In this document: piece after piece, positions 4,140-47,490 of the stretch
How the letters are laid out: each line of letters starts with the position of its first letter
Numbering within the stretch: the first letter of the stretch is position 1
Origin: Candidatus Shapirobacteria bacterium
GTDB lineage: Bacteria; Patescibacteriota; Microgenomatia; UBA12405
DNA: 64,000 nt
Reading direction: 5' to 3'
Assembly: GCA_030698565.1 (NCBI GenBank)
Contig: JAUYJS010000008.1
Location: forward strand, 289,275 to 353,274
Program-made: the position numbers and the translations under genes
Notes under the pieces: generated by a model
Database searches by the model: none
Seen by the model: the letters and a program-made list of their open reading frames with translations, nothing else
What the model was told of the DNA's origin: nothing

Positions 4140-5180
4140 ATGATTACCCGTATTCTCGATAAAAAAGAGAAAGCTATTTATAATTCAGCCATAAAACACC
4201 CCATCCAAACTTGGGAATGGGGCGATTTTCAAATTTCCCAGGGCCATCAAATTTATCGTCTAGGTGTTTTTGATGATAAAAAAATAAAGTCAGCATACAG
4301 CGTAAGTTTTCATAAAATCCCCAAAACTAATTATTCGATTGGTACTATTCTTCGCGGTCCATCGGTCGATATCGATATGATTGAAAGTATCAAAAAAATT
4401 GCTAATGATCAAAAAGCAGTTTTTGTAAAATTTGAACCGGATGTATATCAAAAAACATATGATGAATTTAAAAACCCCACACTTTTGCAGACAGACATGC
4501 AGTTTCCCAAAATGGTAGTTTCTCCTAAGGTTGCTTTTTATCCATTCTCATACATTGTTAATTTAAATAAAACCGAAGAGGAGTTACTTTCTGCCATGCA
4601 CTCAAAGACTCGTTACAATATCAAAATCGCCAATCGTTATGGAGTTAAAGTTGAGGAAAGAACCGATGACGAAGGTTTTGAAATTTATCTTAAATTGATT
4701 TTTGATACAACCAAGCGCCAAGGTTTTTATCTTCATACCCCAAAGTATCATCGAGATTTATGGAAAACTCTAAAAAATACCGGCATGGTTCATATTATTT
4801 TAGCCTCTTACCAAAATCAAGTTATCTCCGCTTTTATGTTGTTTACTCTAAATGGCAAACTTTTTTATCCTTATGGTGCGTCATTAGATGTTTATCGCGA
4901 AGTCATGGCCCCTACACTTTTAATGTGGGAATCAATCAAATTTGGCAAAAGTCATGACTGTCACACTTTTGATATGTGGGGTTCTCTCGGACCTGATGCC
5001 AAAGAAGGGGATCCAGGCTTCGGTTTCCATCGGTTTAAACAAGGTTACGGTGGTCAAATGGTTCAATTTGTCGGTACTTATGATTTGGTCATCAATGAAT
5101 CCTTATACAAAATTTACAACACAGCCGATAAATATCGCTGGCAACTCTTGCGTCTCAAAGCCAAATTACTCCGAAGATAA
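4140..5180 (+). CDS. FemAB-family aminoacyl-tRNA-dependent aminoacyltransferase (peptidoglycan interpeptide bridge formation-like)
   Basis: Length about 346 aa and overall FemAB/FemX-like resemblance, recalled from memory. The position next to gatCAB fits an aa-tRNA-using enzyme. Confidence 0.5.
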   Translation: MITRILDKKEKAIYNSAIKHPIQTWEWGDFQISQGHQIYRLGVFDDKKIKSAYSVSFHKIPKTNYSIGTILRGPSVDIDMIESIKKIANDQKAVFVKFEPDVYQKTYDEFKNPTLLQTDMQFPKMVVSPKVAFYPFSYIVNLNKTEEELLSAMHSKTRYNIKIANRYGVKVEERTDDEGFEIYLKLIFDTTKRQGFYLHTPKYHRDLWKTLKNTGMVHIILASYQNQVISAFMLFTLNGKLFYPYGASLDVYREVMAPTLLMWESIKFGKSHDCHTFDMWGSLGPDAKEGDPGFGFHRFKQGYGGQMVQFVGTYDLVINESLYKIYNTADKYRWQLLRLKAKLLRR

Positions 5181-17795: not shown

Positions 17796-17822
17796 GTAGA
17801 GACGCCCCGCTGGGCGTCTCTA
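17796..17822. repeat. REP-type palindromic hairpin GTAGAGACGCC-CCGCTG-GGCGTCTCTA in the dnaK-dnaJ spacer (REP family A copy; possible attenuator or mRNA stabiliser)
   Basis: Perfect 10-bp stem. The stem sequence is identical to the REP copies clustered at 45107-45227, and it starts with 5' GTAG. Confidence 0.6.
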
Positions 17823-17852
17823 TTTGATTGTTGGTGATGTTAAAATAGACCC

Positions 17853-32801: not shown

Positions 32802-33773
32802 ATGAAAATTGTTATCATTCTGCTAAAGCAATTATTTACATTTTCACTGGTTTTTTATTTGATTCTTTTTCTTTTGGAAACACTTTTTCCCGGTTTTGTC
32901 TCTGATGTTTTTTCATTGAATTGGGTTCTGGGAGGCGTACTGATATTGGGGATAATCTCGGCTTTTTTACCCGAAGATGAAGATCAAACCGAACAAGACA
33001 ATCAAAACAATAAGCCAGCCATTTTTGATTATGTTTTTGCAGTTGCTTTGGGAATAATTGGCGCCACTTTGATTTTCTGGAAAGTTAAATTAGACAATGA
33101 ATATCTTCACTGGTTAATCAGTGCCTTATCGGGTCTTTTAATTATGTTTATGGGAGTAATCGTTTTAATAATGCCCGACCAAGACGAAGAAGCTGAAATA
33201 ATAGTTGAAAGCGAAGCTGATTGGAAATATCAAATTAAAAATTTAAATTTTAAAAAATTATTAGTTTCCAAGATTCAATTGCCAGTCAGTTTTGTAGTTA
33301 TTTTTATTCTTCTGACCAGTTTGTTTATTATCCAAAAACCAAAAACCAAATTGGTGGTTCAAAATATTAACCCAGTTACACCCATACCCAATGTTTCCGA
33401 AACCCCAACTCCTACTCAAAAAGAATTACCTCCGGTTGACCCTGCACTGAAAATATTTGTTATCAATGGCGGCGCCGAAAAAGGCGAGGCCAAAAGAATA
33501 GCTTCAATTTTTACCAAAAAAGGTTATAAAAACGTCGAGGCGAAAGACAGCCCAAAGCAAGACTATAAAGATACTATAATTGAATTTACCGCCGCAGAAT
33601 CTGCCCAAGCCGATATTGTCGAAGATGTTATGATGGAACAATATTTTATTGTTAATAGGTCGCCACTAGCTACCGACTCAGCCCAAATAAATGTCATACT
33701 TGGTGCTCAAGCCATGCCCGAAGACGATTCTTTGCCCAATCCCGACGAAAATTTCGATTTCTTTTTCAACTAA
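32802..33773 (+). CDS. Polytopic membrane protein with a Thr/Pro linker and a C-terminal LytR_C-like domain
   Basis: Four N-terminal TM segments, a TPTPTQKELPP linker, and C-terminal LKIFVINGGAEKGEAKRIASIFTKKGY. Confidence 0.55.
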   Translation: MKIVIILLKQLFTFSLVFYLILFLLETLFPGFVSDVFSLNWVLGGVLILGIISAFLPEDEDQTEQDNQNNKPAIFDYVFAVALGIIGATLIFWKVKLDNEYLHWLISALSGLLIMFMGVIVLIMPDQDEEAEIIVESEADWKYQIKNLNFKKLLVSKIQLPVSFVVIFILLTSLFIIQKPKTKLVVQNINPVTPIPNVSETPTPTQKELPPVDPALKIFVINGGAEKGEAKRIASIFTKKGYKNVEAKDSPKQDYKDTIIEFTAAESAQADIVEDVMMEQYFIVNRSPLATDSAQINVILGAQAMPEDDSLPNPDENFDFFFN

Positions 33774-33780
33774 AAAATAA

Positions 33781-33854
33781 CGCCCTCTACAACCTGTCAA
33801 TTTTTTTAAAAAATCACATCCACATTGTAGGGGCGATTCATGAATCGCCCCTAC
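33781..33854. repeat. REP family B cluster: degenerate half-site CGCCCTCTACAACC (33781-33794) plus a perfect 28-bp palindrome GTAGGGGCG-ATTCATGAAT-CGCCCCTAC (33827-33854)
   Basis: Same 9+10+9 architecture and 5' GTAG as the family A REPs. A CGCCCCTACAATG half-site recurs at 45025-45037 beside the RAYT gene. Confidence 0.5.
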
Positions 33855-34601
33855 CTGTTTGTTACCTGTAATCTGAAAAATGCAATTTGTTTTTACACAG
33901 ACGGGTCGCGACCTGTAAAACAAATTCGTCGTTTTTGGGATGAAAATCAACCGTACGATAAAATCGTACGGTTAAAATTAATTGCATCCGATGGCAAAAT
34001 ACGTTTTACTGACTGTGCTGACACAGAAACAATTTTTCGTTTAATTCAATCAATTCCTTCACCTAAGGCCGAACCGTTTAAATTATGGTTGGCCAAAGTT
34101 GGCCACGAAAGGTTAAAAGAAATTGTAGATCCAGAAATTTCCCTAAACAGAGCTAGGGAAAATTGGAAATCAATGGGACATTCGACGAAATGGATTGAAC
34201 AAAGAATGCGAGGTCAAGAAATAAGAAATAAATTAACTGATTATTGGGCTAACCATAAAATTGAGGAGCAAGAAGAATTTGCCATTCTCACAAACATAAT
34301 TCACAAAGAATGGACTGGTCTAACAGTCAAAGAACATAAAAATTTAAAAAATCTCAAAGGTCATAATTTACGAGATAATATGACCGACGCTGAATTACTA
34401 TTTACTTCCCTGGCCGAACTGACTACACACAAAATAGCGGAGAATGAAAAAGCAATTGGTTTTAATAAAAATGCCATTTCTGCCCAAAAAGGTGGCCGTT
34501 ATACCAAAAAAGCTAAGGAAAATTTTGAAAAATTAACCAACAGTAAAGTAATAAATAAACAAAACTATTTACCATCAAAAAACATTAAAAAGATTAAATA
34601 A
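33840..34601 (+). CDS. DinD-like / Bro-N-family DNA-damage-inducible protein
   Basis: C-terminal half aligns with E. coli DinD (KNLKGHNLRDNMTDAELLFTSLAELTT vs KGLKKNQKILDHMGSTELAANLFRATQT). The ATG lies inside the REP-B loop. Confidence 0.5.
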   Translation: MNRPYLFVTCNLKNAICFYTDGSRPVKQIRRFWDENQPYDKIVRLKLIASDGKIRFTDCADTETIFRLIQSIPSPKAEPFKLWLAKVGHERLKEIVDPEISLNRARENWKSMGHSTKWIEQRMRGQEIRNKLTDYWANHKIEEQEEFAILTNIIHKEWTGLTVKEHKNLKNLKGHNLRDNMTDAELLFTSLAELTTHKIAENEKAIGFNKNAISAQKGGRYTKKAKENFEKLTNSKVINKQNYLPSKNIKKIK

Positions 34602-43250: not shown

Positions 43251-45014
43251 ATGAACAATCAAAATATTGATCAAAACAAAGTGCCTCAAAACTTTTCTAA
43301 AGCAAAGCCCCAAGTTAGGGAATTTAGAAAAAATTATGATTCAGTTAGAATTTCTGCCCTAGGAGGCTTTGGTGGTGTGACTCAAAACATGTACGCCTAC
43401 GAATATATACCCAACGGCGATACTAGTAAAAGCCAAATAATTATTGTCGACTGTGGCGTTGGCTTTCCCGAAGAAGATGCTTTTGGTGTCGATTTACAGA
43501 TTCCCGACACTCATTATCTTGAAGACAAAAAAGACCGAATCTTGGGTATATTTATTACTCACGGCCACGAAGACCACATTGGCGCAATCAGGTTCATCTT
43601 GCCTATTTTAGGCAAAGAAATTCCGATTTATGCGCCCAAATTGGCGGCTGCATTTATAGAATCCAGATTGAGCGAAATTAGCATGCAATCCAATCTTCAC
43701 GTTTATGAAGATAACACCCCTCCAATGGTCAAGGGCCATTTTACTGTTGATCCTATTCGCGTAACCCACTCAATTCCCGACACTTATCATTTTGCTATCA
43801 CTACACCGATTGGTATTATTTACCATGGTTCTGATTTTAAATTCGACCTTTTCCCATTAGATGGCAAAGGTGTCGATTATCGACATATTGCCCGCATTGG
43901 TGAAAAAAAAGTTCTAGTTTTATTATCAGATAGTTTAGGTTCCGATCACGAAGGTTATTCTCCTTCAGAAAGTTCCATTGCAGAACACTTTAAAAGAGAA
44001 ATTGTTGGAGCCAAAGGTAGGGTATTTGTTACCTCGATCTCCAGCAATATTGTTCGTTGGAGTCAAGCGATTGAATACGCCAAGGGTAGTGGTAAAAAAA
44101 TAGTAGTTGTTGGATTTTCAGTTGAAAAAGCAATTAGTATCGCCAAAGACTTAGGTTATCTAAAATTAAATGACAATGATATTATTCCGGTCGATAGAGC
44201 CAAAAATTTTCCTGATAGCAAATTACTTTTTTTAGTAGCCGGCTTTGCCGGTCAACCCGATTCGGCTTTAAGTAAAATGGTAATGGGTAAACATCGGATT
44301 AAAATAAAATCTGGCGACAAAGTTATCTTTTCTTCTCCTGATTATATTCCAGGTACAACTTCAAATATTTACAGCATGATCGATGTCTTATCTAAAATGG
44401 GTGCCGAGGTTTCTTATGGTGAAAAGGAAGAACTTCATGTGTCCGGTCATGGTTACCAAAAAGAACAGGCTCTCCTCATTAGCCTTTTAAGTCCTAAATA
44501 TTTACTCCCAATCGGCGGTAATTATCGTCATCAAAAAAGTTACCAAACAATGGCAAAATCTTTGGGTTATCCAGAAGAAGACGTAATTACTCCAGATTAT
44601 GGTACTTCGGTTACTTTTAATGGTAATGGTAGTTATGATACTTCTTTCCATATTCCATTAAGAAAGATATTGATTGACGGTTTGGGTGTAGGCGATGTTG
44701 GTACTACGGTTTTACGAGATCGTAAATTACTCGCTGGCGACGGTATGTTCTCAGTTGTCTTGCTCATAAACGGACAAACGGGTGAATTAACCAAAGATCC
44801 TGTAATTCTAAGTCGCGGATTCGTTTTTATGAAAGAAAATACCGAATTGATGAATTTTATAAAACAGGAAGTTGTTAATAAATTCAAAGAATCAACCAGT
44901 GCTCCGGCTAATTTTGATTTTATACGCGAACAAATTCAAGCTTATATCGAAAGCATAATTTACGAAAAAACCGGCCGCCAACCAATGGTTTTGCCGTTGG
45001 TAATTGAGGTATAA
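43251..45014 (+). CDS. rnj: Ribonuclease J (metallo-beta-lactamase/beta-CASP)
   Basis: RISALGGFGGVTQNMYAYEY, ITHGHEDHIGAI, 587 aa. Confidence 0.9.
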   Translation: MNNQNIDQNKVPQNFSKAKPQVREFRKNYDSVRISALGGFGGVTQNMYAYEYIPNGDTSKSQIIIVDCGVGFPEEDAFGVDLQIPDTHYLEDKKDRILGIFITHGHEDHIGAIRFILPILGKEIPIYAPKLAAAFIESRLSEISMQSNLHVYEDNTPPMVKGHFTVDPIRVTHSIPDTYHFAITTPIGIIYHGSDFKFDLFPLDGKGVDYRHIARIGEKKVLVLLSDSLGSDHEGYSPSESSIAEHFKREIVGAKGRVFVTSISSNIVRWSQAIEYAKGSGKKIVVVGFSVEKAISIAKDLGYLKLNDNDIIPVDRAKNFPDSKLLFLVAGFAGQPDSALSKMVMGKHRIKIKSGDKVIFSSPDYIPGTTSNIYSMIDVLSKMGAEVSYGEKEELHVSGHGYQKEQALLISLLSPKYLLPIGGNYRHQKSYQTMAKSLGYPEEDVITPDYGTSVTFNGNGSYDTSFHIPLRKILIDGLGVGDVGTTVLRDRKLLAGDGMFSVVLLINGQTGELTKDPVILSRGFVFMKENTELMNFIKQEVVNKFKESTSAPANFDFIREQIQAYIESIIYEKTGRQPMVLPLVIEV

Positions 45015-45106
45015 AAATATAATACGCCCCTACAATGGGTGTAATTTAATAAAAAATTTGACGACAGCACGTCATTTTACATACTTGCCCGCATTTTCTA
45101 TTCCGT

Positions 45107-45227
45107 GTAGAGACGCCAGATCTGGCGTCTCAATCAATGAATCAATATGATTTTGTAGAGACGCATTGTATGCGTCTCAAACATAAAATACGACACGTTG
45201 TAGAGACGCGATTAATCGCGTCTCTAC
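45107..45227. repeat. Cluster of three REP family A hairpins (45107-45132, 45155-45178, 45200-45227): GTAGAGACGC-loop-GCGTCTC(TAC), with 21-22-bp spacers, upstream of the RAYT gene
   Basis: Identical stems with three different palindromic loops (CAGATCTG, ATTGTAT, GATTAATC). All begin with the GTAG tetranucleotide characteristic of RAYT-associated REPs. Confidence 0.7.
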
Positions 45228-45266
45228 CTGTAACACATTAATGTAAATTACATTACAATTAAATTA

Positions 45267-45827
45267 ATGCCTGTTGATAATCCAGATTTATTTGCTGATA
45301 AATTTCGAGTCAAATCTGCAAGATTAGAAGGAAGGGATTATTCCTTGCCAGGGTTTTATTTTATAACCATTTGTACCCATAACAAAAATAAATTCTTCGG
45401 AAAAATTATTAATGGGAAAATAAAATTGTCCAAAGTGGGGAAAATTGTTGAAACGAATATGATTTTATTATCAAACCGTTTTAACAATATTGTAATTGAT
45501 ATATTTGTAATCATGCCAAATCATATTCATATTGTTTTTAAAATTAATAAATGCAGTAATGAATTTTTGGGTAGAGACGCGATTAATCGCGTCTCTACAA
45601 ACCAAATAAATATTATTCCAAACCCAATGAAACAATTCTCATTAGGAACGGTTATTCGATATTTTAAAGCAAAAGTAAAATTTGATACTAACCGCCAAAA
45701 ATTATTTTTCACCTGGCAATCCCGATATTATGATCGGATTATCCGGACAGAAAAGGAATATTGGGCGATTAAACAATATATTGATAATAATCCCAAAAAT
45801 TGGCAGAAAGATGTTTGTTATAAATAA
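45267..45827 (+). CDS. REP-associated tyrosine transposase (RAYT; IS200/IS605-like Y1 HuH transposase)
   Basis: Collinear with E. coli RayT/YafM (GFYFITICTHNKNKFF ~ WFFTVNLRNRR; HuH motif MPNHIHIVF ~ LPEHMHCIW; RYYDRIIRTEKEYWAIKQYIDNNP ~ RFWEHAIRNTKDYRHHVDYIYINP). Flanked upstream by REPs. Confidence 0.8.
   Translation: MPVDNPDLFADKFRVKSARLEGRDYSLPGFYFITICTHNKNKFFGKIINGKIKLSKVGKIVETNMILLSNRFNNIVIDIFVIMPNHIHIVFKINKCSNEFLGRDAINRVSTNQINIIPNPMKQFSLGTVIRYFKAKVKFDTNRQKLFFTWQSRYYDRIIRTEKEYWAIKQYIDNNPKNWQKDVCYK
45571..45598. repeat. REP family A copy inside the RAYT ORF, in frame (encodes GRDAINRVST); identical 28-mer to the 45200-45227 copy
   Basis: Exact repeat GTAGAGACGCGATTAATCGCGTCTCTAC. The reading frame is maintained across it. 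Confidence 0.65.
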
Positions 45828-46074
45828 ATTTAATTCTTACAACAACCTTTTTCCAGGATAATCAGGGTCGATATTATTCAAATTTGGACAATTTGACCTT
45901 CTAGCTTCAATTGTCGATTATGATCGTCAAACTGTTTTACTTCGTCAGCGATTGATTCAGCAATTATTCTGAATTGACACATCTTCTCTCTGTTGCAAAA
46001 TGGACATATTTTTTCCACAAGCGATTATATCAAATACGAAACCCACCAGAGGCTGTTTTAATGTAAAATAGGCT

Positions 46075-47490
46075 ATGAAAGAACTAGTTAAAAAATCAGC
46101 CGATTTATCAGAATGGTACAACAATATAGTTTTAAAAGCCGAACTTGCCGACTATGCCCCGGTCAAAGGTTGTATGGTAATTCGTCCTTATGGTTATGCT
46201 ATTTGGGAAGGCATCCAAAATTTCTTGGATAAGTTAATCAAAGATCGCGGTGTTAAAAATTCTTATTTTCCTTTATTTATTCCCGAAAGTTTTTTGAACA
46301 AAGAAAAGGAACATGTAAAAGGATTTTCTCCTGAATTAGCAGTAGTTACTATCGCTGGCGGCGAAAAATTAAAAGAAAACTTAATTGTCCGTCCGACTTC
46401 CGAAACCATTATGTATGATATGTTTAGAAAGTGGACTTCGTCATGGCGGGATTTACCAATTTTAATGAATCAATGGTGCAATGTTGTTCGTTGGGAACAG
46501 AGGACATATCTCTTTTTAAGAACCTCAGAATTTTTGTGGCAGGAAGGCCATTGTGCCCATCTTACTCACAAGGAAAGCTCAGACATGGTGTTGTGGGCTC
46601 TGGATACATATCAAAAAACTTATACCGATCTTTTGGCCATGTATGGTTATGCCGGAGTCAAAAGCGAATCGGAAAAATTTGCCGGTGCTGGTAAAACGTA
46701 TACCTTCGAATGTTTAATGCCCAATGGCAAAGCTCTCCAGGCCTGCACTTCTCATGATTTAGGTCAAAATTTTGCCAAATCTTTTGATTGGACGGTTCAA
46801 GATAAAAATGGAGATAAAATTAATCCTTGGCAAAATAGTTGGGGATTTTCTACTAGAAGCATTGGTGGATTAATTATGGTTCACGGCGATGATTCCGGAT
46901 TAGTATTTCCTCCTCAAATTGCACCAACTCAAATAGTTATAGTTCCTATACCTGCTCACGAATTAGCCAAAGAATTATCCGAATCAATATACAAAAATCT
47001 TAAAAATGAATTCAGAACAGAAATTGATTTGGTCGAGCAAGAATCCGCCGGTTTCAAATTTAATAAATGGGAAATGAAAGGTGTTCCTGTGAGGATAGAA
47101 ATTGGAGACAGGGAAGCCAAGGAAAATAAGGTCGTTTTATTTCGCCGTGATACTAGTGAAAAAATGATTATTGACGTTAAAGATTTAAATTCCAAAATAA
47201 CTGAAGTTTTAAAAGACATTCAAAATGAATTATTTCTAAAACATAAAAAATTCACTCTGGATAATACTTTTAAAGTTGACACTTATGAAGAATTTAAAAA
47301 AATTATGAATACAACTAAGGGTTTTATATCTGCCCTTTGGTGCGAAGATGCAGAATGCGAATCCAAGATTAAAGAAGAAACAAAAGCTACTACCAGGTGT
47401 TTACCTTTAGAAAATAAACCTGAAAAGGGAGTATGTGTTTGTTGTGGTCGGCCGGCTAATCATCGTTGGCTCTTTGCACAATCATATTAA
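46075..47490 (+). CDS. proS: Proline--tRNA ligase, archaeal/eukaryotic type with a C-terminal zinc-binding domain
   Basis: Collinear with archaeal-type ProRS (RPYGYAIWE, RPTSET, NQWCNVVRWE, FLRTSEFLWQEGH, C-terminal CVCCG...Y). Confidence 0.85.
   Translation: MKELVKKSADLSEWYNNIVLKAELADYAPVKGCMVIRPYGYAIWEGIQNFLDKLIKDRGVKNSYFPLFIPESFLNKEKEHVKGFSPELAVVTIAGGEKLKENLIVRPTSETIMYDMFRKWTSSWRDLPILMNQWCNVVRWEQRTYLFLRTSEFLWQEGHCAHLTHKESSDMVLWALDTYQKTYTDLLAMYGYAGVKSESEKFAGAGKTYTFECLMPNGKALQACTSHDLGQNFAKSFDWTVQDKNGDKINPWQNSWGFSTRSIGGLIMVHGDDSGLVFPPQIAPTQIVIVPIPAHELAKELSESIYKNLKNEFRTEIDLVEQESAGFKFNKWEMKGVPVRIEIGDREAKENKVVLFRRDTSEKMIIDVKDLNSKITEVLKDIQNELFLKHKKFTLDNTFKVDTYEEFKKIMNTTKGFISALWCEDAECESKIKEETKATTRCLPLENKPEKGVCVCCGRPANHRWLFAQSY

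Follow-up and report, generated by a model that had tools for sequence, protein, structure and literature searches.

An in-frame REP palindrome of the gene's own family within a subclass 2.4 RAYT gene from Candidatus Shapirobacteria

The RAYT gene found in a 64-kb window from Candidatus Shapirobacteria (the window being the whole 64,000-nucleotide stretch of DNA that was analysed) contains a complete double-foot GTAG-type REP, GTAGAGACGCGATTAATCGCGTCTCTAC, which is translated in frame within the loop connecting the HuH strand (β3) to helix αC; a second, identical copy lies upstream of the gene. A likely account of the in-gene copy is that a REP from the family of this enzyme lodged in a permissive β3–αC loop, has been tolerated there and is renewed by local copying or conversion. 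The presence of a REP within its own RAYT gene is already known for subclass 2.4 of the TnpA(Y1) family, as described in 2018; what is new is an example in Candidatus Shapirobacteria, a CPR bacterium.

REPs in the window

The first-pass annotation had placed a 28-mer at 45200–45227 and again at 45571–45598, the second within the RAYT ORF. Both are exact matches with 0 mismatches, and GTAGAGACGCGATTAATCGCGTCTCTAC occurs in the window only at these two positions; a search allowing up to 3 mismatches returned no further match in the window (0 expected from 100 shuffles). Each copy is a perfect 28-nt palindrome with GTAG at one end and CTAC at the other, so that the earlier description of the 28-mer as a REP holds and can be narrowed to the GTAG type. 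The two copies are spaced 371 bp start to start, and their 28/28 identity stops exactly at the ends of the 28-mer, the 45200 copy being flanked by ..cgtt and ctgt.. and the in-gene copy by ..ttgg and aaac... The stem GAGACGC/GCGTCTC behind a GTAG foot is common to three further elements (45107–45131, 45155–45178 and 17796–17823), and the features discussed here are as follows.

17796..17823, + strand: a dispersed member of this REP family (GTAGAGACGCCCCGCTGGGCGTCTCTAT), lying between the genes for Hsp70/DnaK and DnaJ
45107..45131, + strand: extragenic single-foot REP, GTAG + GAGACGCCAGATCTGGCGTCTC
45155..45178, + strand: extragenic single-foot REP, GTAG + GAGACGCAT TGT ATGCGTCTC
45200..45227, no strand assigned: double-foot REP outside the gene; it matches the in-gene copy at 28/28 positions and ends 39 nt before the RAYT start codon
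45267..45827, + strand: gene of the RAYT / TnpA(REP) type (putative Y1 HUH enzyme), subclass 2.4, 186 aa; N85-H-I-H88, W150-Q151, Y171-IDNNP
45571..45598, no strand assigned: in-gene double-foot REP, a perfect 28-nt palindrome, encoding residues 102–111 (GRDAINRVST) in the β3–αC loop

The 64-kb window therefore holds five copies of this GTAG-type REP family, a GTAG-type REP being a short (20–40 nt) palindrome with a 5′ GT[AG]G that is dispersed in several copies, and a 10-mer of the family is found five times against 0.67 expected. Three of them (45107, 45155 and 45200) lie 40–160 nt upstream of the RAYT gene, which places GT[AG]G REPs within about 1 kb of the gene. The copy at 17796–17823 begins 14 nt past the Hsp70/DnaK stop codon and ends 30 nt ahead of the DnaJ start, a placement typical of REPs between co-directional genes.

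A second double-foot REP type, GTAGGGGCGATTCATGAATCGCCCCTAC, is present as a single intergenic copy at 33827–33854; its 28 nt form a perfect palindrome, the stem differs from that of the first type, the 3′ flank CTGT is the same as that of the 45200 copy, and ORF 33840..34601, a mechanical call with no Pfam match, has its ATG in the loop. A possible half-remnant, ACGCCCTCTACAACCTGT, lies close to it at about 33771–33790. A second RAYT in the window was considered as a source for this REP type and rejected, since the only other motif match falls within alanyl-tRNA synthetase. An Rfam scan of 44800–46100 gave nothing but sub-threshold eukaryotic snoRNA noise. The RNA hairpin region of the in-gene copy is predicted to fold with −28.2 kcal/mol (z = −7.1).

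The RAYT gene product belongs to subclass 2.4

The gene is flanked by those for RNase J and prolyl-tRNA synthetase (ProRS), and its product is identical to P0001, recorded as 'transposase, Candidatus Shapirobacteria', with a MAG as the source. Pfam, including PF01797 (Y1_Tnp), gave no match to the protein at E ≤ 0.01, and the NCBIfam equivalog model NF047646 (REP_Tyr_transpos) matches it at E 2.3e-13 with 50.2 bits, under the cutoff of 80; many of its homologs carry a precomputed PF01797 match. The missed curated models reflect a divergent subfamily, and the shortfall lies in the reach of the models, not in the fold or the motifs. A profile made from 42 homologs and compared with all PDB sequences has a single relative, 4ER8 (E. 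coli TnpArep). The AlphaFold model of the protein (pLDDT 82.4) likewise finds 4ER8 as its best Foldseek match in the PDB (E 2e-6, TM 0.55/0.61), followed by the IS608, ISDra2 and IS200 transposases. Taken together, the profile match and the Foldseek ranking identify the protein as a predicted Y1 HUH enzyme of the RAYT kind; the name RAYT, assigned to the gene on first reading, is thus upheld by the sub-cutoff NCBIfam match, the sole PDB relative and the top structural match alike. Sequence-specific binding and cleavage of ssDNA hairpins is a trait of the superfamily and is putative for the window protein; the literature searched yielded no demonstration of enzymatic activity for any subclass 2.4 protein.

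In the division of the TnpA(Y1) family by Quentin, Siguier, Chandler & Fichant (2018; PMC6006769), subclass 2.4, which corresponds to RAYT Group 4 of Bertels et al. 2017, is characterised by the motifs NH[IFV]H, WQ and YIxNNP and by a median length of 194 aa (their Table 1). Its β3–αC insertion is very variable in length and sequence and holds short DNA repeats; it is associated with both canonical and 'double foot' REPs, the latter defined in that work, and a REP inserted inside the tnpA(REP) gene is its hallmark (PMC6006769). Every signature tested is present in the window protein: the HuH motif is N85-H-I-H88, the W motif is W150-Q151, invariant in the alignment of homologs, and the Y motif is Y171-I-D-N-N-P176. 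The length of 186 aa agrees with the expected size (~194 aa, with no conserved C-terminal tail domain), the 83 residues from H88 to Y171 agree with the enlarged HuH–Y distance of the subclass (median 88), and 45571–45598 provides both a double foot and an insertion of a REP in frame between HuH and Y. On these signatures the protein belongs to TnpA(Y1) subclass 2.4, that is, to RAYT Group 4.

The in-gene 28-mer is read GGT AGA GAC GCG ATT AAT CGC GTC TCT ACA, giving G102-R-D-A-I-N-R-V-S-T111; the in-frame reading GRDAINRVST proposed for it is thus correct and corresponds to residues 102–111 of ORF 45267..45827. The protein had also been described as about 25 aa longer than E. coli RayT between the HuH and Tyr motifs, which is right as to the stretch and close as to the size, the actual difference being 29 residues (83 from HuH to Tyr in the window RAYT, against 54 from H61 to Y115 in 4ER8). 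The whole of this excess falls between HuH and WQ, and the REP encodes only 10 of the 29 residues. In the AlphaFold model, residues 100–111 and 113–121 have pLDDT < 50 and lie between the strand bearing HuH (86–93) and helix 126–143. The REP-encoded insert is thus predicted to lie in a loop whose placement in the model is of low confidence, which fits a flexible surface loop.

The in-gene site across homologs

In all, 120 homologs were retrieved; 42 were aligned, and 80 genomic loci from many phyla, 74 of them with a recognisable gene, were scanned for hairpins. For close relatives, the DNA of P0002 and P0005 was compared, in place of that of P0003. The consensus at this site in the alignment is RDAINRVST, and most of the 120 homologs carry this string or a variant of it, with centres such as RDAMHCVST and RDVACYVST or with other-frame readings (VETPRGASL, VETHHDASL, VETRLIASL and VETHCVRL); 2–4 copies or degenerate fragments are present in many.

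At the DNA level, a hairpin whose stem has 8 bp or more lies between HuH and WQ in 53 of the 74 genes (72%), from Bacteroidota, Cyanobacteria, Chloroflexota, Planctomycetota, CPR and other taxa; 21 of the 74 have no such hairpin. Hairpins are denser between HuH and WQ (3.98 per kb) than in the remainder of the gene (1.10 per kb). A GT[AG]G or C[CT]AC foot is present in 44 of the 53 hairpins, 27 of which are double-footed. Of the possible readings of the GTAG foot, frame 0 accounts for 23 cases and frame 1 for 15, and the one giving a TAG stop for none. An alignment of homologs had been suggested as a check on whether the segment is an insertion, with a non-palindromic equivalent in the homologs as the contrary outcome; the homologs do have the segment, and they have it as palindromic DNA. 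The description of the arrangement as unusual is not sustained, given that RDAINRVST is the family consensus, that the palindrome is found in 53 of 74 genes and that it was named as a hallmark in 2018 (PMC6006769), nor does it call for a one-off explanation, the site holding a palindrome in most of the family.

The stems vary by lineage (GAGACG, GGGGC, GGGAC, GGAACGG, GGGCGAA and others) and agree with the REPs that flank the same gene. An exact word of at least 16 nt is common to the in-gene hairpin and its own flanks at 19 of 53 loci (36%), as against 0.87% for the flanks of other loci (p = 6e-26). The closest relatives, P0002 and P0003 (54% identity), have other alleles and frames; the allele at 45155–45178 (CATTGTATG), extragenic in the window, is in-gene in P0003, where it is read VETHCMRL. 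The CCAGATCTGG centre of 45107–45131 is also found beside a RAYT homolog at locus L082 (5917–5944). Five loci (L001, L004, L006, L007 and L013) have a perfect in-gene palindrome with no same-family hairpin within ~4 kb. The supplementary REP table of Quentin et al., in the part compared, includes 28-nt GTAGAGACG...CGTCTCTAC REPs for subclass 2.4 genes (PMC6006769); one of its entries, GTAGAGACGTTGCATGCAACGTCTCTAC, is the in-gene REP of L005, L007, L013 and L074, and the exact centre CGATTAATCG was not found in that part.

The identical 28-mer occupies the same loop of RAYTs that are 32–50% identical in protein to that of the window, namely those of L082 (50%) and of the Bacteroidales loci L002, L003 and L027. 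Its eight fully specified codons allow, by our own arithmetic, 41,472 synonymous spellings, and the identity of the 28-mer despite this choice argues that the DNA, and not the peptide, is conserved (or of common origin) at the site. The matter is settled at the level of DNA because the identical 28-mer is read RDAINRVST in some RAYT genes and VETRLIASL in others.

Two further observations were made among the homologs. Proteins P0068, P0107, P0118 and P0120 have a second in-gene REP site just ahead of WQ (for example ..KNAINRVSTDIDFAWQ), in the αC–β4 region, with copies that are for the most part degenerate. In the Cyclobacteriaceae RAYT of L001, the in-gene REP is nested, in frame, in a 56-nt perfect palindrome at 4276–4331 (CCGTTTCCATTTCC-GTAGAGACGCGGTTAACCGCGTCTCTAC-GGAAATGGAAACGG).

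The 28-mer outside RAYT genes

The exact 28-mer is present in at least 130 copies on at least 120 metagenome contigs. Among the matches listed, 8 of 130 copies lie within RAYT ORFs, and for 121 no RAYT ORF was recognised at the copy or within 1.5 kb of it (30 of these 121 are within 300 nt of a contig end). The idea that the 28-mer lives mainly in RAYT genes was rejected on these counts. Stop-free frames of at least 150 aa span 57 copies among the matches listed, and these are always read VETRLIASL(Q/H/R/P/L) or (C/G/R/S)RDAINRVST. Pfam confirmed the host genes of in-frame copies as TatD, a HATPase_c kinase, the GyrA C-terminal domain, RecG, Vsr and DegT, TatD being host twice, at independent sites and in different frames. 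Residence in frame thus characterises this palindrome generally and is not peculiar to RAYT genes. The contigs concerned are L084, L087, L090, L123, L127, L144, L187 and L085, the last with one 616-aa ORF that contains four copies. Several of the host genes act in DNA metabolism, echoing the report by Di Nocera et al. (2013; PMC3733652) of GTAG REPs within unrelated genes, notably those of replication and repair.

Among the matches listed, the base at −1 is T in 69 of 130 copies and that at +1 is A in 69 of 130 (p = 5e-8), which often extends the element to a palindrome of 30 nt, or exactly 10 codons (TGT AGA ... ACA, read CRDAINRVST). A flanking 2–4-bp target duplication, which had been put forward as a mark of insertion, was found neither at the two window copies (45200 and 45571) nor across the 130 listed metagenomic copies, where 2-nt direct repeats number 14 against 8 expected and 3-nt repeats 3 against 2.

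Origin and retention of the in-gene copy

The reading we prefer is that of a REP tolerated in a permissive loop. The 28-mer, with its 5′ GTAG ... CTAC 3′ feet, would belong to the ssDNA hairpin family associated with this Y1 HUH enzyme, and one copy sits in the hypervariable, probably surface-exposed loop between β3 and αC, where extra residues can presumably be accommodated. The frame may be preserved because a stop (TAG) arises in only one of the three frames and because the element often forms a 30-nt unit of 10 codons (T + 28-mer + A); the palindrome in addition reads alike in both orientations, and retained insertions would be only those which are stop-free and have a net length that is a multiple of three. 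The in-gene copy of the window has G at −1 and is not a full 30-nt palindrome, so that for this copy the 10-codon argument is statistical and not demonstrated. The process that brings copies into the loop, and replaces them in it, would be the one by which REPs spread around the gene: the enzyme could cleave and ligate ssDNA, or gene conversion could act between REPs. We infer that the in-gene copy is a passenger with no required function. Signs of turnover include the other alleles and frames in P0002 and P0003, multi-copy arrays, degenerate remnants, and loop alleles common to in-gene and extragenic positions in different genomes. Against the passenger reading counts the 72% occupancy of one loop across many phyla, which is high if purely neutral, and in-gene palindromes with no REP within ~4 kb could mean upkeep for their own sake.

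In the main rival reading the in-gene hairpin would be a selected cis-element, an ssDNA or mRNA stem-loop that is bound or cut by RAYT, slows ribosomes or attracts RNases; its effect would be negative feedback on RAYT expression, or the enzyme gene would stay linked to a master copy of its own substrate. A hairpin does recur at this loop in 53 of 74 members of the family, perfect palindromes persist at loci lacking a same-family REP within ~4 kb, the predicted RNA hairpin region of the window copy is very stable (−28.2 kcal/mol, z = −7.1), and Di Nocera et al. have suggested that REP hairpins may down-regulate RAYT expression (PMC3733652). We nonetheless regard this reading as unlikely: 21 of 74 members have no such hairpin; copy number (0–4), distance from HuH, frame and centre vary even among close relatives, with degenerate remnants common; the loop is placed away from the DNA-binding and catalytic sites (PMC6006769); and the same 28-mer lies in frame in many unrelated genes, from which it follows that residence in coding DNA needs no function specific to RAYT. 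The literature searched yielded no later work on a function for in-gene REPs. A broader proposal, in which the in-gene REP is selected either as a self-target or mRNA hairpin that throttles RAYT and co-inherits enzyme with substrate, or as one half, with the palindrome 371 bp upstream, of a recombination switch (inversion or deletion) disabling the 5′ half of the gene, we hold to be distinctly improbable.

The first-pass annotation had raised a recent, self-targeting insertion. Recent local copying between 45200 and 45571 is indeed plausible: the two copies agree at 28/28 positions, whereas the centres of the other three REPs of the family in the window differ from theirs; different alleles and frames are carried by the closest relatives, P0002 and P0003, and in-gene hairpins share words with their own flanks at 36% of loci against 0.9% for other loci. 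A derivation of the whole arrangement from one recent event confined to this lineage, an insertion or gene conversion by the 45200 copy at a site with no deeper history, is nevertheless quite unlikely, as the same allele is found in the same loop of L082 (50% identity) and of the Bacteroidales loci L002, L003 and L027, RDAINRVST is the family consensus, target duplication is absent, and most members of the family have the site filled; recency could apply to the allele at most and does not extend to the arrangement. For the same reason, namely the presence of this allele in the same loop of relatives 32–50% identical, the identity of the two window copies does not by itself date a copying event. 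It might instead be supposed that GRDAINRVST is a functional peptide motif, from whose gene the extragenic copies derive, and RDAINRVST is the majority residue string in the alignment. This is very improbable, since all synonymous positions are identical across proteins of 32–50% identity, the peptide lies where pLDDT is < 50, 121 of the 130 listed metagenomic copies are outside a recognisable RAYT ORF, and the same DNA is read VETRLIASL in other RAYTs; conservation at the peptide level was rejected on this reading-frame evidence. Hardly credible, finally, is an assembly artefact in which a palindromic repeat has been collapsed or mis-joined. The source is a MAG, and identical palindromes 371 bp apart can confuse assemblers; the ORF, however, is intact with its catalytic motifs all in order, the predicted model folds as a Y1 HUH domain, and the same architecture is found in dozens of independent assemblies, isolate genomes included.

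The finding itself leaves current understanding unchanged. It adds a quantitative picture (72% loop occupancy in 74 homologs, use of two frames, agreement with each gene's own flanking REPs, and the same 28-mer in frame in unrelated genes). It also bears on annotation: odd 'RDAINRVST' and 'VETRLIASL' peptides in many predicted proteins are translated REP DNA, and in this CPR genome Pfam misses a divergent RAYT subclass, whose NCBIfam score stays under the cutoff, despite its fold and catalytic motifs.

Comparison with known systems

The window RAYT shares with the IS200/IS605 elements (TnpA subclass 1.1) the Y1 HUH transposase fold, the putative recognition of ssDNA hairpins and the absence of target duplication. 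Those autonomous elements combine a multi-copy gene with distinct end hairpins and often tnpB, a combination that is not present in the 64-kb window: there is a single RAYT gene, between the housekeeping genes for RNase J and ProRS, none of the ORFs flanking it looks like tnpB, the Y motif reads YIxNNP and not Y[IV]ENQ, and the hairpins are dispersed REPs in place of defined left and right ends.

Rickettsia palindromic elements (RPEs) are longer than the window REP and are, to our knowledge, restricted to Rickettsia. In common with RPEs and with the intragenic REPs already reported, the palindrome described here is short and lies in frame in unrelated genes, often those of replication and repair (PMC3733652); unlike RPEs, it is a 28–30-nt GTAG double-foot REP with a cognate RAYT.

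E. coli TnpA(REP)/RayT (YafM; PDB 4ER8; subclass 2.2, RAYT Group 2), the best structural match and sole PDB sequence match of the window RAYT, has the same predicted Y1 HUH fold, and both have the WQ..R region of GTAG recognition and GTAG-footed REP hairpins beside the gene. The two proteins are 19% identical; that of E. coli has 29 fewer residues between HuH and WQ and differs in its motifs, which are DHLH, WE and YIHYNP, and its REPs have bulged long stems, with no report of them inside the gene (PMC6006769).

The closest likeness is to subclass 2.4 itself, with which the window RAYT agrees in its HuH, W and Y signatures, its length, its variable β3–αC insertion, its flanking GTAG REPs and its double-foot 28-nt REP with a GTAGAGACG stem, in frame between HuH and Y. 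The hosts named for that subclass are Cyanobacteria, Bacteroidetes and 'various phyla' (PMC6006769); the host here, in contrast, is a CPR bacterium, and a documented oddity of subclass 2.4 is thereby extended to a Candidatus Shapirobacteria genome.
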